Shown piece by piece: positions 439-13,139 of a stretch of 64,000 nt of DNA. Source of the DNA: Acetivibrionales bacterium (GTDB lineage: Bacteria > Bacillota > Clostridia > Acetivibrionales > JBMNNH01); contig JBMNNH010000009.1 of NCBI GenBank assembly GCA_050953835.1, forward strand, positions 12,944 through 76,943, in the 5' to 3' direction. Positions within the stretch are counted from its first letter, which is position 1, and every line of letters begins with the position of its first letter. A program made the translations under genes and the position numbers. A model generated the notes under the pieces. It was given only the letters and a program-made list of their open reading frames with translations, did not search any database and was not told the DNA's origin.

Positions 439-1491
439 TTACATTTTCGGAGCTGCTGTTGAGTCTCTGATGATTAGCTTTGTAGGTAGCAATATAGATT
501 GTTTTACAGGATGACTCCCCTCAGTTATATTTTGGATTAAAAGTTTTGCTGCAATTTCACCCATAGTAGTAATTGGCTGAGCAACAGTAGTTAATCTGGG
601 TGTTATAAGCTTTGAAGTTATTGTATTGTCAAACCCGGAGATCGAAATATCTTCAGGAACTCTTATATTATTTTCCGTTAATGCTGTATAGGCACCTATT
701 GCAACACTATCATTTAAACAATGAATAGCAGTGGGTCTGTCTTCTAACCCTAAAAGCTTCAATGTAGCAGAATATCCTGGATTAACAAAACTTTCAGTTT
801 TAATAATATAATCGTCTCTTATTGGTATGCCATGCTTTTCAAGTGTTCTTTTATAACCCAAAAAACGATTACGTAGCACAGAAATATCATATTTGAGACC
901 AATAAAAGCAATTTTTCTATGACCTAGTTCTATTAAATGTTCTATTACCGATGACGTGCCCTGCTCATCTGTAGTATCTATCCTATCTACTCCATCGATA
1001 TCAGCCTGAATTGACACTATATGCATTGATTTTTTTGCTTTGTCCAATAACTCTTTATTTGTTATGCTTGTACTTATAATCATCAATCCGTCAGTACGCC
1101 TTTCAAGCATTTCATTAATGTAGTATTCTTCCTTTTTGCTTTCTTGATTGGTATTACATAGCAACATAAAGTACTTATGCTTGCTCATAACATCTTCCAC
1201 GCTTTTAATAAACTCAATAAAATATGAGTTGGTTATATCAGGTATCATTAGTCCTATAGTCTTACTAGTCTTCTTTACAAGACTGCGGGCTATCGCATTG
1301 GGTGTAAAATTAAGCTCATCTATTATTCTCTGAACTTTTTTTCTTGTATTCTTGTTTACAAGTCCGCTATTATTAATCACCCTTGAAACAGTGCTAATAG
1401 ATACCCCAGCAGCCTTTGCAATATCATTTATGTTAAGCTTTTTCTTTTCCTGTAATTTCTTCTCAATAGATTCCACTATGATCTCCCTCAT
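439..1491 (-). CDS. LacI-family transcriptional regulator
   Basis: N-terminal INDIAKAAGVSISTVSRVIN HTH; C-terminal VPEDISISGFD and PRLTTVAQP sugar-binding domain motifs. Confidence 0.95.
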   Translation of the reverse strand: MREIIVESIEKKLQEKKKLNINDIAKAAGVSISTVSRVINNSGLVNKNTRKKVQRIIDELNFTPNAIARSLVKKTSKTIGLMIPDITNSYFIEFIKSVEDVMSKHKYFMLLCNTNQESKKEEYYINEMLERRTDGLMIISTSITNKELLDKAKKSMHIVSIQADIDGVDRIDTTDEQGTSSVIEHLIELGHRKIAFIGLKYDISVLRNRFLGYKRTLEKHGIPIRDDYIIKTESFVNPGYSATLKLLGLEDRPTAIHCLNDSVAIGAYTALTENNIRVPEDISISGFDNTITSKLITPRLTTVAQPITTMGEIAAKLLIQNITEGSHPVKQSILLPTKLIIRDSTAAPKM

Positions 1492-1579
1492 TAAACCATT
1501 ATTGAAAACACTTTATGTATCTGTAATTATCTATTTTAAGTAACTTAATACATTCCTTCTGGAACAATACAACAAATTT

Positions 1580-1597
1580 AATGAAAAGCTTTTCATT
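1580..1597. promoter_or_regulatory. Palindromic LacI-type operator candidate (AATGAAAAGCTTTTCATT)
   Basis: Perfect 18-bp palindrome resembling TGAAAnnnnTTTCA LacI/cre boxes, about 90 bp upstream of the LacI gene. Confidence 0.6.
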
Positions 1598-2041
1598 TAT
1601 TATATATATTCTACACAAAAATAAAAATTCCTTCTTTTCTTATAAATTTTTTTATTATTTTTTTTTTTTGAATATAAAATTAAAAATGAAGTCAGATAAG
1701 AGCATGTTATTGACTTGACAAAATACTGAATTACAGCGCTTCTGAGGTGTTTGCCTTATTTTGTAAGACTTATCCTTTGAGAAAATTATACGATTCAACG
1801 TTGAAAGAAAAAATACTATTAATAATGTAAATATTATGGTAACGTTTCTAATATATTCCTACATACCTTGGTATAACCTATTTCACGGCTCCACGAAAGA
1901 AGATGCAATAAATATTAATGCTATTCCAGAATTCTTTCTGTGTATGGATAAACCAGTAGTCAGAATCATAGCTGCCACCGATGCTGCGTTCTGGATGGCA
2001 GGAAGCCTGAAAAAAACCACCAGGTTGCCTGCCATTCAGTT

Positions 2042-2467
2042 CTACTGAATATCAATTTTTCTTCTCTTTGTTTTTGAAGGCTCTACCTTCGGTACTGTGA
2101 TTGAAAGGATACCATCCCTATATTCTGCTTTTGCTTGGTCGGACTTTACCTCAACAGGCAGCGGGATTGTCCTTGAAAAGCTACCGTAATACCGTTCTGT
2201 TCTGTAAGCGTTTTCATCCTTCAGTTCCTTTTCCCTCTTTGTCTGACCTGTAAGCCTTATAGTTTCCCCATCGATATATAAGTTCAGATCTTCCTTTGAA
2301 ACACCAGGTATTTCTGCTTTTACAATTACATCGTCTTCTGTCTGGTACACATCTACGCGGGGAGAAGAGAAGCCCCCAAATATTTTTGAGGGAAAGTCAA
2401 AAAAACTGCTCACTTCCCTGCCGATATTGTCCATATCCCTAAAAGGATTCCACGGTACAAGAGCCAT
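2042..2467 (-). CDS. Hsp20/alpha-crystallin small heat shock protein
   Basis: PRVDVYQTEDDVIVKAEIPGV, ERYYGSFSRTIPLP and AEYRDGILSITVPK motifs; ATG 2467 follows GGAGG. Confidence 0.95.
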   Translation of the reverse strand: MALVPWNPFRDMDNIGREVSSFFDFPSKIFGGFSSPRVDVYQTEDDVIVKAEIPGVSKEDLNLYIDGETIRLTGQTKREKELKDENAYRTERYYGSFSRTIPLPVEVKSDQAKAEYRDGILSITVPKVEPSKTKRRKIDIQ

Positions 2468-2598
2468 ATTAAACTCCTCCTTCATATTTTTTCAGTAATA
2501 GTTTTTCCTCTTAAATAATTTTTATAAAAAATATGAAGAAGATAGAATAAGAACTGGTGAAAATACTACTGTTAAATCAAAAGAAAAATCTTTTTTCA

Positions 2599-2648
2599 CT
2601 ATCCATATCCTCACTCTCTTGCTTTAAAATTGTAGATGGGCTTTATAA
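2599..2648. repeat. Exact 50-bp duplicate of 2901-2950 (rtcB 3' end and stop codon)
   Basis: ctatccatatcctcactctcttgctttaaaattgtagatgggctttataa is identical at both positions and flanks the REP-like element. Confidence 0.95.
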
Positions 2649-2650
2649 AA

Positions 2651-2885
2651 TATGACAGGGGACGGTTCTGTGTCCTATTACTCACATCTCTCTACAATCC
2701 CCTTGCTTACCCCTGTCAAACTACTGATTTGCTCTACTGAGATACCTTCTTCCCGCAATTTCTTAATACAACTGTTCCTCAATTGATTTCGAGATGCTTG
2801 AAACTCCGATAAGTTTTTATATTTAGAGACTTTCCTTAGCATACCAACCTATCTCAGTCGAGACACGGAACCGTCCCCTGTCTTG
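2651..2885 (-). mobile_element. MITE-like element: inverted REP-like 21-mers enclosing a 54-aa C-terminal remnant of a putative REP-associated tyrosine transposase
   Basis: GACAGGGGACGGTTCTGTGTC (2654-2674) and GACACGGAACCGTCCCCTGTC (2862-2882); internal ORF 2842-2678 MLRKVSKYKNLSEFQ...RNSCIKKLREEGISVEQISSLTGVSKGIVERCE. Family assignment is from recall of clostridial RAYT C-termini. Confidence 0.7.
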
Positions 2886-2912
2886 TTTCCCTTTTCCCTG
2901 CTATCCATATCC

Positions 2913-4102
2913 TCACTCTCTTGCTTTAAAATTGTAGATGGGCTTTATAATATCAACTATTTCAACAGTATCTTGAATATTATTAATGATTTCATCCATA
3001 GGCTTGTAGGCCAGAGCACATTCATCCAGTGTTGACCTGTTGACAGTGGTGGTATATATTCCTTCCATTGTTTTTTTAAACTCTTCAAGACTGATGGTTT
3101 TCTTAGCCTTTCTCCTGCTCATTATCCTTCCTGCCCCATGAGGCGCAGAATAATTCCAGTCTTTATTGCCTTTGCCAATGCAAATAAGACTTCCGTCCCT
3201 CATGTTTATCGGGATTAATACCCTTTCGCCTTTTCGGGCGGAAATTGCACCTTTTCTTAAAATCATGCTGTCCAAATCAATATAGTTGTGTATGGTTGTA
3301 AACTGTTCTTCTATTTCAAACCCCATTCTGTTTATAATCTCGTCAACAATGGCTTTGCGGTTATATACGGCATACTGCTGGACTATTTTCATATCATGCA
3401 GGTAATTGTTATAGCTTTTCCCCTGTACATAGGCTAATTGTTTGCTGATTTTGACAGGACTGATTTTCTTAATTTCATCCTGGATTTCTTTTTCGCGTCC
3501 TTCAGCCTTCAGTTTTTTACTATTTCAGCCTTCAGTCTGTTTTATCCGTAAGCTCCTTATAAGCCAGTTCCTGATAGTATTCTGCAACCTGCTTTCCCAA
3601 ATGCCTGCTCCCGGAATGGACAACCAGGTATAATGTCCCATTACTGTCTTTGTTGACTTCTATAAAGTGGTTTCCGCCTCCCAAAGTGCCAATACTCAAT
3701 CTTGCTCTTTCAAGATTAACATGTTTTTTACAGGCTAAACTATTAAAGTCATATGCTCTCAGTATATTTATGCTGTTTTTTCCTAATATTAAACCCTGAA
3801 GGAATATAATCATAGATAACATTATCCAGTTTTTCAAAGTCAATCTCTTTCTGCTTTAGTTTTATGGTTTCCATGCCGCAGCCTATATCCACACCAACAA
3901 GATTAGGCACAATCTTATCAGATATTGTCATAGTTGTGCCAATGGTACAACCCGCACCGGCATGGGCGTCAGGCATAATCCTGATAATACTGTCCTTCAC
4001 GAACTCCTGATTGCATAGTTCCATGATTTGGGCTATTGCTTCACTTTCTACATTATCAGTGAATACTTTGGCAGTATTATATTTTCCTTCAATCTTAATC
4101 AT
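2913..4102 (-). pseudogene. rtcB: RtcB-family RNA ligase, split by frameshifts (possibly assembly indels)
   Basis: MPDAHAG, VGVDIGCG, GTLGGGNHFIE, HSGSR, IHNY, RKGA and SAPHGAGR motifs spread over ORFs 3749-4102, 3532-3843 and 2913-3392. Confidence 0.9.
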
Positions 4103-4355
4103 ACTTTCACCTAATTCACGTCCATAATTTTTCCAAGCTTAAACAAAATATTGAAACAGACACTCCTAGCAAGAGGAGCAAGTATGCTTATCATGTTCAT
4201 AATTCAAATGATAAACCATACCTCATTTTAAGCAATTAAGAGTAATTTCCACTTCCTCTTACTTTCTTTTGCCTAATGGTATGAAAGTGGTATATATCCA
4301 CTTTCACTGTAAGGTTAAAAAACTAAACAAAGTTAACCAAATATGAAGTTTATTA

Positions 4356-5678
4356 TCACGGTCCCGTACCTACACCGTCAATCCTCCAGCCGCTTTTTTC
4401 AGATTCTTTCTTCAATATAACAAATCTTGGTTGGATTCCATCATCTGAGGTTATTGGTTTTACGAAGTCAAAGTCAACTTCAACCATATACTCCAACACC
4501 TCTGGCTCATTCTGAATTCCTTTAAATTCTTTTGTCTCCAGCAACTTTGCACTCTTAATATTATAGTCTATTTTATTCTCATCCCTATTAAAAAGGTACT
4601 GGTTGTTCATATTGGATGATAACTGCTGCGATAGGCTTTTTCTTGTCATACATGCCCATACCATTTTTATGTCATGCCTATCTAATGCCTTGAAATACTC
4701 TCTGATTATATCCTTTGGTTCCATTTTGGACAGCTTGATTTCCAATTCATCCTCATAATCAATATAATGTGCAATCCATCCATCCCATTCCTTGCCCGTA
4801 ATATCTTTTAAACTCTTTCTATCAAGAGAGCATGCGAAAGAATTGTGCCTTCCGGCATCGTTATATGCCCCAATAATCTCATCATTATGCTTAAGAATAA
4901 TGCCTCTCGCGTCTCTTCTTGGCTTCATAAACTCGGGAAGCGTTTCCCTAAGCCTATAAATTTCTGCTGTAACAACCTTTCCGAGGTAACCAGTATAATC
5001 AAAACCTATTTGCTTGGAAAGTTCATTGTTATAAGCCCAATATATTTTTACCGGGTATTCTCCTGCCCTATGTTTAAGGCTTTTAGGTAATTTTTCTTTT
5101 AAGGTACTTATTCTATAGTCAACAGTCCAGTTATATTTGCCAAATAGTCGCAACACTCGCTGCTCAATATTAGTATCAGGATTTGTATACTCATTTAAAT
5201 CGGCAATGTATCTAAAGAAACTATAATCTGGCTCAACCTTTCTCCCACCTTTATCTATGTACCCTATTTCATAAAGAGTATCATATGTAAAACTAATATC
5301 CTTTTTGCTCCCATCTTTTCCATTAATAATTAACTGATTGTTTTTACGGGCCATTCCACTCATCTTGCTTATTTTGGATTCATCTGTCAATGGTTTGCTT
5401 TCCTCTATCATGGACATAATGTCATTTATCATCTTAGAGTCTTTAATTAATATAGGTTTTACCTTATTCCAGTAAGTCCCATTCGCATCGAGGATAAGTT
5501 CAATTGTTGTAATATCCTTAGTCCTGTCAGTAGTTTCATGCTCCTCATCCCCAACCTTATCTTTTTGTGTCTCCTGCTTTAAAGAGATTTGACCTTTTTG
5601 CACCGTATTACAGCCTGCTGAAAAAACTATTATTGTTATCAATAAAAGCATCAAACATCTTCTGTACAACTTATACAC
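4356..5678 (-). CDS. Lipoprotein, probably with DUF4830/DUF4829-like domains
   Basis: Lipobox FSAGC; C-terminal PKDIIREYFKAL...FVILKKESEKSGWRIDGVGTG pattern. Confidence 0.7.
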   Translation of the reverse strand: MYKLYRRCLMLLLITIIVFSAGCNTVQKGQISLKQETQKDKVGDEEHETTDRTKDITTIELILDANGTYWNKVKPILIKDSKMINDIMSMIEESKPLTDESKISKMSGMARKNNQLIINGKDGSKKDISFTYDTLYEIGYIDKGGRKVEPDYSFFRYIADLNEYTNPDTNIEQRVLRLFGKYNWTVDYRISTLKEKLPKSLKHRAGEYPVKIYWAYNNELSKQIGFDYTGYLGKVVTAEIYRLRETLPEFMKPRRDARGIILKHNDEIIGAYNDAGRHNSFACSLDRKSLKDITGKEWDGWIAHYIDYEDELEIKLSKMEPKDIIREYFKALDRHDIKMVWACMTRKSLSQQLSSNMNNQYLFNRDENKIDYNIKSAKLLETKEFKGIQNEPEVLEYMVEVDFDFVKPITSDDGIQPRFVILKKESEKSGWRIDGVGTGP

Positions 5679-6013
5679 CTCCCTATTTCAATGAATCCAT
5701 AGAATTTCTTCATGCTTCTTCCGGAATTCTTCTTCAATAATCAGACCATCTTCCTTCAGCCTCTCGCTTCTCGTTTTTCTTACCTACACCCTTTAATCAC
5801 GGAGATTGTTTTTTTGATTATGATTTTCCTTGTCCCATGTTTTCACCATCACCTGTCACCTATTGCCCATCACCTGAATAATGCGCGGCTTGCTGCGCAT
5901 ATTCTACTAATACATCATAAGTCATAATCTATAATGCAGCCTAATTTTTATATTATTATATCAATTTTCATCATTAATGGAAAATAAGAACTCGCCAAAG
6001 GAAGTAATTCAAT

Positions 6014-6186
6014 TCTGAGTTTCAACGATTAGAAATCAAAGTAAGAAACAGCTGCATTAAAAAACTACGGAAGAAAGGACTTTCAGTAAGATAGATTAAT
6101 AGGTTAACAGGGGTAAGCTAGAGAATTGTTGAGAGATGTGAAAAACAGGACATAGAACCGTGCCCCGTCCTATGTCCCCAGTCTTA
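6014..6186 (+). mobile_element. Degenerate RAYT-like C-terminal remnant plus REP-like end, opposite orientation to the other copies
   Basis: Translates SEFQRLEIKVRNSCIKKLRKKGLSVR*INRLTGVS; followed by GACATAGAACCGTGCCCCGTCCTA and a second partial copy TGTCCCCAGTCTTA. Confidence 0.75.
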
Positions 6187-6191
6187 CCGTT

Positions 6192-6773
6192 TTATTCTTC
6201 CTTTTCCCATTGGTCCATCTGCCTCATAACCTCATCGTATGTTTTTTTACAGATATCAGGAAGTTCTCCTCCCAGGGCTTCTTCCGCTGCTTTGAAGCCT
6301 TTTTCAATTGCATCTTTCAATTCAGCAATTTTACTCTTATCGCCGCCCGAAAGCGACTTTGCGAAATCGACAATTCTTGAGCTTACCGCTGCAACACCCC
6401 ATTCTCCATCGTCAGAAATCATCTTTTCCGCTTCAGCCCTGGTTTTACTGTCTATCAACAGGATTTCCTTTCCGTCATGAACACTCCCGGCCTTTTTCCC
6501 CTGATTGACAATCAGGTTCTCCACAAGCTCTCTCAAGGACGCAGTCGCCTTATCGACTTCCTCCCAGAGCCTGTCAATATCTTCAACACTCATGGCTGAC
6601 GGTCTGGAAACAGGATTGCTGTAAGTGACGCTCTTGTTTTCGGTTTTACCGATCTCCACAATTACGCCGTTTTCTTCACCGGTATTTATTCTCTGATCTT
6701 CCTTGACATTCCTCTTATCATTGGTTTTATAGGCTTGTGCCGTGTTTGAAACAAGCTGAACAGAATTAACCAT
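6192..6773 (-). CDS. Conserved hypothetical protein, probably in the flagellar (sigma28) regulon
   Basis: ATG 6773 with GGAGG; clostridial motif WGVAAVSSRIVDFAKSLSGGD...GFKAAE..LGGELPDI; sigma28 promoter upstream. Confidence 0.75.
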   Translation of the reverse strand: MVNSVQLVSNTAQAYKTNDKRNVKEDQRINTGEENGVIVEIGKTENKSVTYSNPVSRPSAMSVEDIDRLWEEVDKATASLRELVENLIVNQGKKAGSVHDGKEILLIDSKTRAEAEKMISDDGEWGVAAVSSRIVDFAKSLSGGDKSKIAELKDAIEKGFKAAEEALGGELPDICKKTYDEVMRQMDQWEKEE

Positions 6774-6822
6774 TATAATCCCTCCATCCATGGACAATAT
6801 GTTGAAATCCTTATATTAATAG

Positions 6823-6851
6823 TTATATCGGCATAAAATGAAATAACTTAA
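6823..6851 (-). promoter_or_regulatory. sigma28 (FliA/SigD) promoter
   Basis: TTAA-N15-GCCGATATAA on the minus strand. Confidence 0.75.
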
Positions 6852-6884
6852 CAAAAGCATATGCTATACGTATGAATTTTAATG

Positions 6885-6999
6885 TTGAAACTCCCATAAG
6901 TTTTTACATTTTGAGACTTCCTCAGTACACCAACCCGTCTCAGTCAAGACACAGAACTGTCTCCTTTAGGGCTTGACTTTTTATAGTTAGTCTGTCTTA
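6885..6999 (-). mobile_element. Truncated copy of the 2651-2885 element
   Basis: 6885-6965 aligns by eye with about 2798-2879 (degenerate GACACAGAACTGTCTCCT); TAAGACAG at 6999-6992 directly follows the corrected csaA stop. Confidence 0.75.
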
Positions 7000-7328
7000 C
7001 TATCCCAGCCTGTCTCCTTTTTTACCTTCTGTTCAGGCTCAATCAATACTACTCCCTGTTGGGCATATACACCTAATACCAGTACTTCTGACATAAAACC
7101 GGCAATTCGTTTTGGGGGAAAGTTTACAACGCCTAAAACTTGCCTGCCAATAAGCTCTTCCGGTTTGTAACATTCAGTAATTTGAGCGCTCGATTTCTTT
7201 ATGCCGATTTCTTCACCAAAATCTACTAATAGTTTATATGCGGGCTTTCTTGCCTTTTGAAAAACTTCCGCCTGAATAATTTCTCCAACCCGAATATCCA
7301 GTTTCATAAAATCATCAAAAGTAGCCAT
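7000..7328 (-). CDS. csaA: CsaA/Trbp111-family tRNA-binding protein or chaperone (1-nt indel near the 3' end)
   Basis: [40 protein letters not shown]; restoring one G gives the canonical KGDRLG* ending at 7000. Confidence 0.9.
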
Positions 7329-8028
7329 TATCAGACCCTCCTGTGGAATACTTAAGTTTTCTCGACTCTACCGTGCAGAGAAAGTCGTATATGGGTTTCA
7401 GCTTCCTGAAACCCTTTTTTAGTATATCAGGAAGCTCCTTTGAAAACGCAAGCTTGAAATCATTTTGGACAGATTCGAAGTATATGTTTTTTCTGTCCAG
7501 CCATAATCTTAAGCTCTCCGGCTGACCGGGAAACTTGCTTCTTTTGTACATTTCGCCCCCGATAACAAACTCATTTTGGGATTCATAGCACTTAAGCGCG
7601 CTTAAAAATGCAGGATGTCTGTTTATTATCATTTCCCGCATAATAGCCATTGATTCTGTTGGTGCGCCGTAATAGCCAACACCGTAGCTTGAGCCTTTCT
7701 GGTTTATTTCAAACCAGAAGCAAGGAGAAGTTGACATCTTGGATTTATCCCGCAGGAATACAAGCCAGGCATTATCCCTGTAAAGGCTCTTATCTTTTGA
7801 AAAACGGGTATCCCTGCGGACTCTGGAAATCAATTTCGATGGGATAGTTATAATCATATGGTCTATTTCCGTCATAGTAGGCACCAATTCCATAATAAGC
7901 TCTACAAATGGGTGGTATACGTATTTTTTATATTGGCTTTTATGGCTTTCATACCAATCTTTGCTATTATTTATTTTGTTTTCAAAAAGGAATTTCAGTG
8001 CTTCTTGGGTAAATCCACTAAAACTCAT
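7315..8028 (-). CDS. DUF2461-family protein
   Basis: [22 protein letters not shown] and [17 protein letters not shown] motifs. Confidence 0.85.
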
Positions 8029-8163
8029 ATCAGTAACCTCCGTATTATTACATAAAAACAAGGTGCAATATCTTTTTTAAATATTTTGACAGAAATCTAC
8101 AGTTCTATCAAGTAAGGCTAGAGATTATGATACAGTTTTTCGGGAATATGATCAACTTAATTG

Positions 8164-8432
8164 TATGACAGTATGACAGGGGACGGTTCGTATGACAGGG
8201 GACTATGACAGGGGACGGTTCTGTGTCCTATTCATCACATTATATGACAGGGGACGGTTCTGCGTCCTATTCATCACATTACTCTACAATACCCTTGTAT
8301 GCCCTTGTCAAACTGCTGATTTGCTCTACTGAGATACCTTCTTTCCGCAATTTCTTAATACAACTGTTCCTCATTTTGATTTTCAAATATTGAAACTCCG
8401 ATAAGTTTTTATATTTTGAGACTTTCCTTAGC
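8164..8432 (+). repeat. Five nested, 5'-anchored copies of the REP-like end; the last runs into a RAYT-like remnant encoded on the minus strand
   Basis: Copies start with TATGACAG at 8164, 8172, 8191, 8204 and 8243, with lengths of about 8, 19, 13, 39 and 190 nt; ORF 8279-8467 ends LRKVSKYKNLSEFQ...GISVEQISSLT. Confidence 0.9.
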
Positions 8433-8688
8433 ACAGCAACTGAAACCACAGTTTTAAAAAATACCATATGCTTTATGCTCTCAACAAAATACTCTATTGG
8501 TGAAGCGAATAGTTTATTCCTAAGGCTTGGGCAAATAATAGAGTATTAAATATGTAGCCAGAAACACAAAAACAAAAGTAATTAAATATGTAAAACCTTT
8601 TTCATTGGTACTTTTCCCTGTAGAATATAAACACTTTTAATACACATATTTTTAAAAATCGAAACAATTAGCCTAAAGATTTTATGAA

Positions 8689-9225
8689 TTAGTTTATTGT
8701 AAACTCCGATGCTAAATAGTAAGTGTCATAATCACCTGTACCTCTAAAATCCAGTATATCTTTTATAATGCGGTATTTTCCTGATTCTAAATTCCCATAG
8801 AGCCAGTTCCAATCGACTTTCCATTCTCTACAATCACCAGGCGATAAATCATAACCAATGCTATTAAATCCGTAGTCGCCATCTATAGTAACAGGAACTC
8901 TATACCAAATTCCATTGATTTTCTTTTCTAATCCAAAGTATTCGCCATAGATGCATTGACTGCTAGAATTATTCTCGATTACTACAGTCAATCCAGTTGA
9001 GGTCGCTGTTTCTTTCTTTACAGTCATAGTAACGCCATCAAAGTTGTTGGTAGTTTCGTATGTTGATGGATTCCAGTCAGTTACATCAGTAGACTGGCTT
9101 AAAGTCTTTTCTATTTCGGTGCTTTCTATATCTACAACCGATATCCTGTTATCATTGACCTTACACCCTGCAAGTAGAGCTAAAAAAGTGGCCATACAAA
9201 TGAATAAGCATATATACTTTCGCAT
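8689..9225 (-). CDS. Lipoprotein with bacterial Ig-like domain
   Basis: Lipobox LLAGC; GVTMTVK, YGEYFGLEKK and WNWLYGNLESGKYRIIK motifs. Confidence 0.8.
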   Translation of the reverse strand: MRKYICLFICMATFLALLAGCKVNDNRISVVDIESTEIEKTLSQSTDVTDWNPSTYETTNNFDGVTMTVKKETATSTGLTVVIENNSSSQCIYGEYFGLEKKINGIWYRVPVTIDGDYGFNSIGYDLSPGDCREWKVDWNWLYGNLESGKYRIIKDILDFRGTGDYDTYYLASEFTIN

Positions 9226-9249
9226 AAAAAGTCTCCTTTTTAATACTAT

Positions 9250-10600
9250 TGTTCTGTTAACTTAATAATAAAATGAGACCTGAAACGCCTCTGGTATAAT
9301 GGAATCGTCAAAAAACACATTATCTCCCAGAAAGGAGCGTTCAAGTCTCATGACTATTATACCATCTAACGTAGTATGTCCAAGGTGTTTTTCAAAAGTT
9401 CTTAACCGTTTTGGTAAGGACAAGGAGGGTTACCAAAAATATCAGTGTCAACATTGTAAGCGTCAGTTCGCTCCAGATAACCCTACTTCCAATTCACAAT
9501 CGAGAAAAAGAAAATATCCTGATTGCCCGATTTGCGGTAAAGCAACTTTTCTTCACCATGACTATACTTATTACTCAAACTTCCGGTGTGGTGATAAAAA
9601 AATGTAACCATTCCTTTAGAGTTCCGAAGCTTATTAACGTGGAACCACCTTCTTCTGAATTGAACCCACAAAGCTTTTCTTTTAAAGGAATGCGTCATTC
9701 TCTCCACATTGTTCTTTGTGCCCTTAATTACTACTTTTGCGGTAATTCAACCACCCGCAAGGTTTCCCAGATCTTATACATGGTTCATCAGATTAAAGTC
9801 TCACATGTTACCATCTCGAAATGGATTAAGCGCTTTGCCCCGGTATTTAAAAAGATCGCCACAGATCGGCTTTTGGGGATTAAGCTCTGCGATTCGGATG
9901 AATGGCATTTCGATGAAACCTATATCAAAATTTCTGGGAAAGATTATTATCTCTGGCTTGCCATTGATTCCGAAACCAGATTAGTTCTTGATTTTCATCT
10001 TTCTCCTAACCGTGATTCATCCGCTGCTCATACCCTTTTATCAAGCTGTAAAAGAAATTTCGGACAACCTCAATCCGCTGTAATTTCTGATCGATATTAT
10101 GCCTATCAACAGCCTGCTTCTCTGTTCTTCCCAGAGGCCAAACATATTTGTGTGGAAGACTTTGATGATTTAATCAACAACAATGTTATAGAGGCTTTTA
10201 ACGGGCAATTCAAAGCGTGGTACAAACCTAAAAGAGGCTTTAATTCATTCGAATCTGCCAACCGGCTCATTGCTACATACATTTTCTTTTACAACTTCGT
10301 TCGTCCTCATTTGAGTCTCAATGGTTTAACACCGGCTCAAGTTGCCGGAGTTAAATACTCAAAACGCGAACGGCTCTTCTGGTTATTGGTAGCTTGAGTA
10401 ATATTCAGATTTCAAGGTTCATTCCGTCCTGCGCTGTGCCAGGACTATTTGTGCTACCTTAATTAGAACTTTTAAGGGTTGCACATCACTTTTTTTCATG
10501 TTACTTTGTTCTTAGTCGTTTCCATTAGTAGGCTTTTTTCTTTTTAAGCTCTACCAAAGGTCTTTCAGGTCTCATTTCTTCATACTTAGTTAACAGAACC
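9250..10600 (+). mobile_element. IS6-family insertion sequence
   Basis: Terminal IRs (T/G)GTTCTGTTAACT...AAATGAGACCTGAAA; 8-bp target duplication AATACTAT at 9242-9249 and 10601-10608. Confidence 0.92.
9350..10397 (+). CDS. IS6-family DDE transposase with N-terminal Zn fingers (one extra A in the run at 9596-9602)
   Basis: CPRC, CQHC and CPIC motifs; WHFDETYIKI, ISDRY and NNVIEAFN DDE motifs. Confidence 0.9.
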
Positions 10601-10616
10601 AATACTATTATTATTA

Positions 10617-10642
10617 GACGTTTAATATCAATATAAGTTACA
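10617..10642 (-). promoter_or_regulatory. ECF sigma (SigX/M/W/V-type) promoter of the Ig-like lipoprotein gene, now separated from it by IS6
   Basis: TGTAAC-N16-CGTC on the minus strand. Confidence 0.65.
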
Positions 10643-10693
10643 AAATTATATAAAATCTTGTATCAAGAAATAGGGTAAGTCGAAAGGAAAAAT

Positions 10694-10742
10694 AAAATCC
10701 CGTAGCAAATGAAGATTTCTCCTGCATTTGCTACGGGATTTT
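10694..10742 (-). terminator. Rho-independent terminator downstream of glmS
   Basis: 18-bp inverted repeat AAAATCCCGTAGCAAATG...CATTTGCTACGGGATTTT. Confidence 0.85.
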
Positions 10743-10811
10743 GAAGCGAACTTTATTTTTATAGAGCGAAGTCTATTTTTATGGAGCGGAGTTTGTTTGA
10801 GTTATACGCAA

Positions 10812-10861
10812 GACATAGAACCGTCCCCTGTCTTACCCGTCCCCTGTCTTACACTGTCTTA
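10812..10861 (-). repeat. Three nested REP-like copies starting at the glmS stop codon
   Basis: Minus strand: TAAGACAGTG / TAAGACAGGGGACGGG / TAAGACAGGGGACGGTTCTATGTC; the first TAA is the glmS stop. Confidence 0.9.
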
Positions 10862-12685
10862 TTCCACCGTCACACTCTTGGCCAGGTTCCTTGGTTTATC
10901 TACATCACAGCCTTTGAGGACAGCCATGTAATACGCAAACAACTGCAAAGGAGTAATGGCTGCTATGGGGGCAACTACAGGGTCTACATCCGGTATAGTT
11001 ATTATTGTATCCGCTACTTCTTCAACCCTCTTTTTATTGTATTGCTGTGTTATAGCAAGGACTACAGCTCCACGAGCCTTTACTTCCTTGACATTGCTCA
11101 CCATTTTATCCAGCAGGTGATCCTGTGTCATAGGGCATACAACAAGGGTTCCTTCTTCAATAAGGGCTATCGTACCATGTTTCAGTTCCCCTCCCGCATA
11201 GGCCTCAGAATGGATATAGGATATTTCCTTGAGTTTTAATGAACCTTCCATGGACAAAGCGAAGTCAAGTCCTCTTCCAATAAAAAATATACTGTTTGCA
11301 TTGTAATGCTGTGAAGCAAATTTCTGTATATCTTCCCCATCCGAAAGTACACTTTCTATTGCAGCCGGAATATCTTTCAATCCCTGGATAACCCTATTGT
11401 ATGTTTCATAGTCAATATTGCCCTTTTTATAAGCCAGATCCATTGCAATAAGATACAGGGCAGAAAGCTGGGTGTTGTATGCCTTTGTAGACGCAACAGC
11501 AATTTCAGGCCCTGCCCATGTATAAAGAACATCATCAGACTCCCTTGCAATTGAGCTTCCTACCACATTAACAATTGACAGTATCCTTGCTCCTTTGCGC
11601 TTCGCTTCTCTTAATGCAAACAGAGTGTCAATGGTTTCGCCTGACTGGCTAATTATTATTACCAGAGTTCTTTGATTTACTATGGGGTCACGGTACCTGA
11701 ATTCAGAAGCTATATCTACTTCAGACGGGATTCTGGCAAACTGTTCTATCAGGTATTTTCCTATAACACCTGCATGGGATGCAGTACCGCATGCAACTAT
11801 AAAAATCTTATCAATGTTCTCCAGGTCTTGTGCAGTGATGTTTATATTATCCAATTTGATTTTCCCATCCAGCAGTCTAGGATTAATAGTATCTCTGACA
11901 ACATTTGGCTCTTCACATATCTCCTTCATCATAAAATGTTTATATCCTGATTTTTCAGCAGCCGAAACATCCCAGTCAACATGAAAAATCTCTTTCTGTA
12001 TTTTCAAACCATAGTTGTTGAAAATTTTAACTTCATTTCTGCTTAAGGATACCACTTCCTTGTCCTCAAGGATATAAATATTCCTCGTATACTCAAGAAT
12101 GGCTGGAATGTCCGATGCTATATAGTTTTCTCCTTCACCCAGCCCAACAATAAGAGGGCTATCCTTCCTTGCAGCAACAATCTCATCCTTGCAGTCCTTG
12201 CACAATACCCCCAAGGCATAAGAGCCTTCAAGCTCATTGATTGAGTCAATAACAGCCTGTACAAGGTCACCGTTGTAGTGATATTCCACAAGGTGGGCGA
12301 TTACTTCAGTATCTGTATCCGATACAAACTTATATCCCTGGGATTGCAAAAACCCCTTTAGCTTTAAATAATTCTCAATTATTCCATTGTGTACAACAGC
12401 AATTTTCCCTGACCAGCTTATATGAGGATGTGAATTTACATCATTAGGTTCACCATGGGTTGCCCATCTTGTATGCCCTATGCCTGCACTTCCTTCCAAA
12501 ACCTCTTTACCGGCTTTTTCCTCAAGACAGCTAAGCCTCCCCTTGCATTTTACAACCTTTAAACTATCATCATTGTAAATTGCAATGCCCGCGGAGTCAT
12601 AGCCCCTGTATTCCAGTTTTTTTAAACCGTTTATAAGAATAGGCGCAGCTTTCTTTACGCCAATATACCCAACTATTCCACACAT
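10859..12685 (-). CDS. glmS: Glutamine--fructose-6-phosphate aminotransferase
   Basis: MCGIVG start with AGGAGG RBS, LEYRGYDSAG, GHTRWATHG and PRNLAKSVTVE end. Confidence 0.99.
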   Translation of the reverse strand: MCGIVGYIGVKKAAPILINGLKKLEYRGYDSAGIAIYNDDSLKVVKCKGRLSCLEEKAGKEVLEGSAGIGHTRWATHGEPNDVNSHPHISWSGKIAVVHNGIIENYLKLKGFLQSQGYKFVSDTDTEVIAHLVEYHYNGDLVQAVIDSINELEGSYALGVLCKDCKDEIVAARKDSPLIVGLGEGENYIASDIPAILEYTRNIYILEDKEVVSLSRNEVKIFNNYGLKIQKEIFHVDWDVSAAEKSGYKHFMMKEICEEPNVVRDTINPRLLDGKIKLDNINITAQDLENIDKIFIVACGTASHAGVIGKYLIEQFARIPSEVDIASEFRYRDPIVNQRTLVIIISQSGETIDTLFALREAKRKGARILSIVNVVGSSIARESDDVLYTWAGPEIAVASTKAYNTQLSALYLIAMDLAYKKGNIDYETYNRVIQGLKDIPAAIESVLSDGEDIQKFASQHYNANSIFFIGRGLDFALSMEGSLKLKEISYIHSEAYAGGELKHGTIALIEEGTLVVCPMTQDHLLDKMVSNVKEVKARGAVVLAITQQYNKKRVEEVADTIITIPDVDPVVAPIAAITPLQLFAYYMAVLKGCDVDKPRNLAKSVTVE

Positions 12686-12890
12686 AGTAATTGACCTCCT
12701 GGATTCAAATTTTTGATGTAGGGACATGCGTTTATTGGCTTTGGACAAAAGTCCTCCCCGGCCGCTTATTACCGCGATATCCCCAAACTGAGCAATATGC
12801 CCAAACGCCATTTCACACAATTCAATTGCATAGAAATAGCTTTCTCAGATGTTTCAAAACATAATGGAATTATAATTTGAATAGAACAGG

Positions 12891-13076
12891 ATTGCCAATC
12901 CAGCTCACTTTGTACCACAGTTGCCTGTAGTCTTTGTAGAGCCTTAACGGCCTTGGCAAGCCGGAAGGTTTCCGCCGAAAACTCGATAACTCACATTACA
13001 TCTGATAACCAACACTATATAATGTGACCTCCTTCCCCTCGTCAACAGGAATAATATCTCCTGTCCAGGCGCTTAT
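12891..13076 (-). ncRNA. glmS ribozyme (GlcN6P-activated), with an atypical hairpin insertion
   Basis: AGCGCC-P1-UGACGAGG...UUAUCGAG..UCGGCGG core; P2 GGAAGG/CCUUCC; P4 ACUACAG-GCAA-CUGUGGU; pseudoknot UUGCCAA/UUGGCAA. Confidence 0.93.
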
Positions 13077-13139
13077 AATACTCACTATCCTCCTTTCAAT
13101 TTCTCGCATAATCCTGTTATTTAGCATCACCTCCTTCAT

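Follow-up and report, generated by a model that had tools for sequence, protein, structure and literature searches.

Hairpin repeats behind glmS in an Acetivibrionales genome as probable remnants of a RAYT/IS200-like single-strand transposon

Y1 enzymes of the HUH class bind imperfect hairpins on one DNA strand, cut alongside them and excise a single-strand circle. Replication forks offer the single-stranded DNA into which the circle inserts, and a strand and orientation bias results (outline in part after PMC5027513). The closest described systems are the repetitive extragenic palindromic (REP) sequences with their REP-associated tyrosine transposases (RAYTs), such as E. coli TnpA-REP (4ER8) and the Pseudomonas REPINs (REP doublets forming hairpins), and the IS200/IS605 elements with their palindrome-associated transposable elements (PATEs). 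Proximity to stop codons has been described for E. coli REPs (PMC12306157). RAYT Group 1 is given by Bertels et al. 2017 (PMC5581495) as the group most like insertion sequences (ISs) and as occurring in Clostridia. Here we analyzed a stretch of 64,000 nucleotides (the window) of an Acetivibrionales genome (assembly GCA_050953835.1, contig JBMNNH010000009.1, positions 12,944 to 76,943), in which imperfect hairpin repeats occupy about 8 kb behind glmS. An initial annotation had proposed that an HUH/Y1 enzyme acting in trans uses these hairpins to add cassettes serially past the stop codon of glmS, the locus serving as an integron-like platform at a safe harbour. We instead read the repeats, with a probability of about 0.78, as solo hairpins and decayed non-autonomous remnants left by a RAYT/IS200-like transposon of a known kind, with no gene collecting.

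When the 15-mer GACAGGGGACGGTTC was searched with up to 3 mismatches, eight matches were found in the 64-kb window, starting at 2654, 2868, 6155, 8175, 8207, 8246, 10818 and 10834. All of them lay at 2654-10848 and none elsewhere in the window. Shuffled windows contained a mean of 0.67 matches, and 0 of 100 shuffles attained eight. The scan and the shuffles thus bore out the earlier statement that the repeats are clustered in about 8 kb behind glmS with no full copy elsewhere in the window. A further, more degenerate copy was found at 6948-6965. In the whole source assembly (27 contigs, 2.86 Mb, 93.6% complete), 19 matches with up to 2 mismatches were obtained. Seventeen were credible and confined to three loci, with eight copies on the window contig (C9), five on contig C19 and four on contig C23; the two lone 2-mismatch matches elsewhere were probably due to chance. 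One of six repeat stretches of the window folded significantly better than shuffles (6140-6192, -8.6 kcal/mol, z -3.7), and the remaining five folded weakly (z +0.15 to -1.2).

The same 15-mer was found in 22 of 40 genomes of the same order, for the most part as inverted doublets with a spacing of 25-45 nt and on many contigs (103 matches in genome G021, 47 in G009, 42 in G004 and 33 in G037), while the reversed pattern used as a control gave 0-2 matches per genome. Y1 genes were present in all five genomes richest in the motif, and full-length elements were recovered from G021 and G009. The one on contig C64 of G021 consisted of a hairpin, a 276-aa Y1 gene and a second hairpin, the ends being inverted; the one on contig C71 of G009 had inverted motif copies around a gene for a 251-aa protein. 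The G021 protein matched PF01797 (E 7e-15), had a weak C-terminal helix-turn-helix (HTH) and scored 73 bits on NCBIfam NF047646 (REP-associated tyrosine transposase), for which the cut-off is 80. For the G009 protein, E. coli TnpA-REP 4ER8 was the only PDB match (E 5e-4), and visual inspection of the sequence gave the motifs NHLHL and RYIHQNP. Its C-terminus reads ...RKVSKCKNASEFQLLEIKERNSYIRKLRKEGLSIRQISRLTGISKGIVERCGK, and its last 54 residues aligned with the tail open reading frames (ORFs) of the window (Table 1). At the DNA level, window positions 2645-2895, which hold the mini-element copy called A below, shared 77% identity with the 3' portion of the G009 element along 186 nt. Hairpins at both ends were found in the two full-length elements and in copy A; the right end of the G021 element folded at z -3.4, and the window hairpins were weaker.

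These comparisons showed the window repeats to be the terminal hairpins (REPs) of a RAYT/IS200-like single-strand transposon whose intact form measures about 0.9 kb. The HUH/Y1 origin suggested earlier is supported by the tail ORFs, the full-length relatives, the PF01797 match in G021 and the 4ER8 match in G009. No PF01797 match was found in the window or in the whole assembly, confirming and extending the earlier remark that the window holds no intact transposase. Only the last ~54 codons, encoding the HTH tail, survive, indicating that the window copies are derivatives and not enzyme-encoding members. A search for a full-length HUH-Y1 gene, as the initial annotation had suggested, was negative for the source assembly and positive for G021 and G009; either the source genome has lost its transposase, or the transposase gene is unassembled.

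Like REP/REPIN-RAYT systems, this family has a Y1 HUH gene between inverted imperfect hairpins, 4ER8 as its best solved relative, hairpins just past stop codons and, in the relatives, hairpins scattered intergenically as singlets and inverted doublets. Unlike them, its protein has an extra C-terminal HTH (~100 aa) and falls under the NCBIfam REP_Tyr_transpos cut-off (73 vs 80 bits), and the source genome has no RAYT and just 17 motif copies. The G021 gene also differs from a domesticated RAYT, being IS-like with at least six copies that are 97-99% identical, although the dispersal of the motif in the relatives matches. With IS200/IS605 elements and PATEs it shares the Y1 transposase, subterminal hairpins, short non-autonomous derivatives with both ends (copy A) and copies oriented as the local genes. 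In contrast to IS200/IS605, the present element is without tnpB. IS200/IS605 elements insert 3' of a fixed 4-5-nt target without duplicating it; the 5' flanks of six G021 copies had no common sequence and no evident conserved 4-5-nt target, and copy A lies between the arms of a 53-bp direct repeat. The ends of IS608 are a distinct left and a distinct right end, whereas the two ends of the present element appear to form a nearly perfect inverted repeat. A 37-nt repeat beside one G021 element was considered as a target duplication and rejected, as it is a different palindromic repeat. Membership in the CGTC-tagged REP super-family was also rejected: the CGTC of the present motif lies in the loop and not in an unpaired end tag, and Firmicutes are unlisted in the part of PMC3733652 that was available.

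Besides solo hairpins, the window contains three copies of a mini-element, designated A, B and C (Table 1). Alignment with the G009 element showed that in copies A, B and the left part of C ~45 nt of the left end runs directly into the final ~165 nt of the gene, with the joint at one and the same position. The third tail, that of copy C (6014-6173, + strand), is a stop-ridden relative of the two tail ORFs. Copies A and B were 89% identical over 200 nt, and either was 70-75% identical to C; with mutual identities of only 70-89%, the copies are old. From the common joint we concluded that A, B and C are three old copies of one non-autonomous deletion derivative of ~235 bp. It is like a miniature inverted-repeat transposable element (MITE) or a PATE, copy A being 235 bp long with both ends and several copies stemming from one deletion. 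Cargo had earlier been thought to have replaced most of a transposase, and a single deletion joint common to the tail-bearing copies rules against this, as it does against stepwise accretion. In the mini-element found on C19 the deletion is another one, which spares the first ~24 codons (MPRRVRQLSSTGIYHI...).

The modules of the proposed platform also lacked ordered left-right pairs of ends, given the inversion in copy C and the missing left hairpin of copy B. Copy C is split in two around the gene at 6192-6797 (the 6192 gene), its halves being in opposite orientation with GAGTTTCAAC at both inner breaks, a layout that fits an inversion. On the minus strand, the right hairpin of copy C with its T-run resembles a terminator (6178-6147) just after the 6192 gene, and the hairpin at 6147-6178 now looks terminator-like. 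The tail ORFs were also considered as functional small HTH proteins. This was rejected, as A and B were 89% identical in DNA but only ~76% in protein, copy C has stops, and no sign of selection was seen.

At glmS, the TAA that opens the partial unit of the REP stutter is the glmS stop codon, and no element-internal sequence was found beyond the stutter. Window positions 10680-10805 were homologous to the sequence 3' of glmS in G009, comprising a tandem A/T-rich repeat and a terminator hairpin, and G009 is REP-free there. Because the untranslated region (UTR) beyond it is homologous in this REP-free relative, the glmS REP is a plain 3'-UTR insertion, placed after the stop codon and ahead of the native terminator. 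The comparison showed that the native glmS UTR and terminator lie directly beyond the REP, which is difficult to reconcile with accretion behind glmS. By the same homology, 10861 and 8164 are not two ends of one cargo-carrying element. The initial annotation had taken them to bracket cargo; the native terminator (10694-10742) lies inside this segment, as does a separate IS. Among the glmS loci fetched from the five REP-rich relatives, 0/5 had a REP, two of them offering only 84 and 257 nt downstream; this too speaks against a platform.

Three tandem ~19-nt A/T-rich units lie at 10746-10800, between the REP and the glmS terminator, and are conserved in the glmS 3' UTR of G009. The contigs with glmS in G037 (L132, G037:C57) and G009 (L133, G009:C86) end 84 and 257 nt after the gene, which hints at repeated DNA downstream there too.

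Foreign DNA directly after the glmS stop codon is reminiscent of Tn7 at attTn7. In contrast to Tn7, no TnsABCD genes were found among the ORFs scanned (Tn7 end repeats were not searched by pattern), the sole TnsD Pfam match was sub-threshold and lay in the HTH of a LacI regulator, and the insert is a 50-nt REP within the 3' UTR with the native terminator kept.

The adjacency of repeats to stop codons counts in favour of cassettes: repeat clusters divide the gene groups, and three of them lie no more than 28 nt past stop codons. The overlap with the glmS TAA was as first described, as were the distances for the 6192 gene, where a partial unit begins 5 nt past TAA, and for rtcB, where the repeat lies ~28 nt past the stop. 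For csaA the earlier distance of 0 nt did not hold. It corresponds to a TAAGACAGAC located within the last csaA codons, and the degenerate left end begins ~23 nt past the TAA. No repeat follows the stops of the Big_14, DUF2461 and DUF4829 genes, so that 3 of 7 genes lack one, contrary to what serial addition of cassettes would leave.

Stop-codon distances were also determined in G009, in a sample of the genome consisting of 20 regions around listed motif hits and one more, picked regardless of genes. The two ends of the full-length element were left out, ORFs of at least 100 aa were used, and distances were taken from the 15-mer. Fifteen of the 25 sampled REP clusters lay no more than 32 nt past a stop codon, and none (0/25) was that near a start codon, the nearest being at 81 nt. 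In one cluster the TAA was fused straight to GACAGG, as at glmS. The stop-codon habit was thus shown to be family-wide, a genome-wide tendency and not a property of a platform behind glmS. Earlier it had been allowed that a repeat scattered through intergenic DNA would make this an ordinary REP/MITE; this holds for the family, which is scattered on many contigs in the relative, and not within the source genome.

The REPs were commonly preceded by a stutter, in which 2-4 flank bases and the first 5-12 nt of the motif are duplicated; the partial duplications in the G009 sample comprised a few flank bases and the first 8-16 nt. It was seen at the G009 loci L140-L160 and in the window at 8164-8210 and 10836-10861. 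Since the duplicated flank bases vary between loci, the stutter arises at or after insertion, and its position may be where the ends are cleaved and rejoined.

Table 1. Coordinates of glmS, the repeats and the genes behind glmS (window positions)
Feature	Position	Strand	Description
rtcB, three frame pieces	2913..4102	-	broken reading frame
DUF4830/DUF4829 lipoprotein gene	4356..5678	-	Pfam; lipobox FSAGC by eye
DUF5610-like hypothetical protein gene	6192..6797	-	homologues named hypothetical or DUF5610
csaA, tRNA-binding chaperone gene	6987..7328	-	PF01588, TIGR02222
DUF2461 (TIGR02453) gene	7315..8061	-	overlaps csaA by 14 nt
Big_14 (bacterial Ig-like) lipoprotein gene	8689..9225	-	PF20251 at 7e-27; lipobox LLAGC
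IS6/IS240-family IS	9251..10599	+	PF13610, PF03811; terminal inverted repeats; frame break between zinc-ribbon and DDE ORFs
Mini-element copy A, complete	2651..2885	-	left hairpin 2860-2885, deletion joint, HTH tail ORF, right hairpin 2651-2674
Copy A tail ORF	2678-2842	-	54 codons, putative C-terminal HTH tail of HUH/Y1 transposase
Mini-element copy C, tail and right hairpin	6014..6187	+	inverted relative to left part, stop codons in tail, starts at GAGTTTCAAC
Mini-element copy C, left part	6876..6965	-	degenerate left hairpin, subterminal sequence, common deletion joint; ends at GAGTTTCAAC
Mini-element copy B	8164..8455	-	right-end units, HTH tail, common deletion joint, short left-subterminal remnant; left hairpin gone
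Copy B right end	8164-8266	-	three full and some partial hairpin units in tandem
Copy B tail ORF	8279-8467	-	putative C-terminal HTH tail of HUH/Y1 transposase
Native glmS intrinsic terminator	10694..10742	-	21-nt-arm hairpin, then minus-strand T-run
Solo REP stutter, 50 nt	10812..10861	-	one full, one near-full and one partial hairpin unit
glmS	10859..12820	-	Pfam SIS and GATase domains; last gene of conserved upstream block
glmS ribozyme	12892-13084	-	Rfam RF00234, 66 bits

The genes between the repeats are listed in Table 1; past copy A, reading down from glmS, hsp20 is next. The 6192 gene had been labelled sigma28, a label that was dropped because no Pfam sigma domain was detected in its product, only a sub-threshold match to PEP-utilisers_N. 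It is true, as first noted, that the modules are all on the glmS strand, but this is regional: between 439 and 27363, ORFs of 150 aa or more all lie on the minus strand, with the IS and a shadow ORF within glmS as the only exceptions, so that minus-strand genes extend over 27 kb. The GC content of the region was 0.374, compared with a genome mean of 0.391 in 8-kb windows, placing it at the 19th percentile. In contigs from other runs, single-base indels were found in rtcB at 3518, 3542 and 3751, and T runs hold two of the three. Since the frame breaks of rtcB and of the IS coincide with such single-base indels, they may be assembly errors, in which case rtcB would be no pseudogene.

The IS was absent from the first description of the array. 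It has an 8-9-bp target duplication (AATACTATT) and six copies in the genome at 99.5-100% identity (the window, C18, C19, C23 twice and C27). Four public runs were compared as Logan contigs, which are short and break at repeats, and the usable joints were the IS empty sites only, 9230>10608 and 9243>10612 in runs X2 and X3. Apparent joints between repeat positions in the runs were discarded, as their sides were only 20-29 nt long and came from repeat matches of other places or organisms. The depth of the IS was very high in four bioreactor or digester runs. The IS is a recent, active-looking insertion that is unrelated to the REPs.

Some of the co-oriented genes have an imperfect single-strand hairpin at the 3' end, which recalls the attC cassettes of integrons. 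Unlike an integron, the locus has no integrase (Pfam, 16 ORFs, 439-12820), no attI and no common promoter; 3 of 7 genes are without a hairpin, and the hairpins are transposon ends associated with a transposase tail.

The origin of the cluster could then be as follows. A Y1-HTH enzyme, now missing or unassembled, would have mobilised its own ~0.9-kb element and, in trans, the 235-bp derivative. As with REPs generally, insertions would have landed or survived in the short gap that follows a stop codon and precedes the next terminator or promoter, the place of least harm. Nearby re-insertion, followed by the inversion of copy C, the end loss of copy B and the IS hit, would have led to the present arrangement. 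The intervening genes would be unremarkable chromosomal genes of poor conservation that lie on the regional coding strand and were not brought by the repeats.

Several observations weigh against this reading. The clustering is extreme, with all three mini-element copies and 8 of the 17 motif copies within 8 kb; we infer local insertion near existing copies, tolerance of the stretch behind glmS, or both. As the assembly is 93.6% complete, a Y1 gene could also sit in a gap. Copy A, together with 15 nt, is flanked by a 53-bp direct repeat (2599-2651 and 2901-2953, 98% identical) that contains the last 13 rtcB codons, the stop codon and ~13 nt more, and in the four public runs homology between the window and contigs of relatives breaks off exactly at 2900, the edge of this repeat. 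Peel-and-paste Y1 transposition leaves its target unduplicated and does not predict such a repeat.

The comparison with relatives adds to these points. A glmS-based search of genome contigs gave 67 loci, only four of them with a glmS at least 69% identical. In the nearest relatives (glmS 69-78% identical; L021, L022 and L024) synteny was observed upstream of glmS, and it stops at the glmS 3' end. This agrees also with the accretion platform, but it is weak evidence, because glmS closes a conserved operon and the relatives are distant. L021, the only one of the four with 10 kb downstream, shared no downstream gene and no REP with the window there, and none of its own downstream genes lies near glmS in the source genome. 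The gene content is patchy, which again would be compatible with accretion: among the five REP-rich relatives, Big_14 was found in none (with this query) and the 6192 gene in one (43% identity). Homologues of the 6192 protein that are 84-99% identical do exist (P0001, P0003, P0004). In metagenome contigs, DUF2461 was found at 34 loci at 44-82% identity (33 at 67-82% and one at 44%) and in several contexts; these loci, which may belong to different taxa, were never beside csaA, had no REP near the gene and in no case resembled the window. A variable, acquired stretch behind glmS is thus possible.

The 8 kb could also have been imported, with the C19 and C23 loci, from a REP-rich donor, the repeats being passengers. 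The patchy gene content fits this, as do the confinement of the motif to three loci with no Y1 gene assembled and the occurrence of REPs at equivalent places in the paralogous C19 and C23 segments (91-93% identical). We consider such an import unlikely: the GC content of the region is ordinary, the REP nearest glmS lies in a native, conserved 3' UTR, the mini-element copies are old judging from their identities, and no integrase, att-like junction or tRNA was found at the borders.

Occasional composite mobilisation, in which Y1 uses the ends of two copies to move or invert a segment such as the 6192 gene, could account for the opposite orientation of the copy C halves with GAGTTTCAAC at their inner breaks. 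Three loci of G021, L137 (G021:C64), L138 (G021:C35) and L139 (G021:C98), carry paired full-length copies that are 97-99% identical, in direct orientation and 1.8-5.4 kb apart, bracketing ankyrin-repeat, Cu_amine_oxidN1 and PD-(D/E)XK genes. A cargo-moving composite would look like this, and paired elements around accessory genes would suit the accretion platform as well; the pairs count against remnants that collect no genes. Either the pairs result from local hopping or insertion next to existing hairpins, which explains them equally well, or they move the intervening DNA. No duplicated cargo that would show movement of genes between paired elements was found, nor a second copy of any bracketed segment, and an ordinary inversion accounts for copy C. 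Composite mobilisation therefore seems decidedly improbable at this locus. A more general form would take in both the glmS stretch and the G021 pairs, which bracket surface-protein genes. It holds that a Y1-HTH element can use its left end together with the right end of a neighbouring copy and so shuffle the genes in between, favouring the first bases after stop codons. We regard it as very doubtful; if true, it would give HUH transposons an added gene-moving mode. As no module was duplicated elsewhere in the genome and the assembly contained no integrase-like or Y1 gene, the integron-like platform, already at odds with the native UTR, the single deletion joint, the missing repeats, the family-wide habit and the regional strand, is highly improbable.

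With the repeats read as transposon remnants, a puzzling cluster in the genome of an uncultured member of the Clostridia is assigned to a REP/RAYT-type family and the reading as a new integron is removed. For the study of single-strand transposition, three features are of interest: the architecture of Y1 with a C-terminal HTH, which is IS-like in one relative; hairpins no more than ~30 nt past stop codons in most sampled cases, with their characteristic stutter; and a mini-element flanked by a 53-bp duplication of the 3' end of a gene.

Hairpin stems with AGGGACGGTTC followed by T runs were observed at C10:42434-42488, C10:43136-43187 and C15:1876-1921 of the source assembly. These doublets resemble ordinary terminators having 10 nt in common with the REP core and were not counted as family members. 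A thiamine-gene segment of ~4.5 kb (thiE, HAD, thiC and PTPS-like) occurs twice in the source genome, at C19:23864-28349 and C23:70744-76576, with 91-93% identity and REP doublets at matching places. The duplication could be a true paralogue or a strain mixture in the bin. The C23 segment is IS-hit and without long ORFs, and several thi genes on C19 and C23 appear fragmented.

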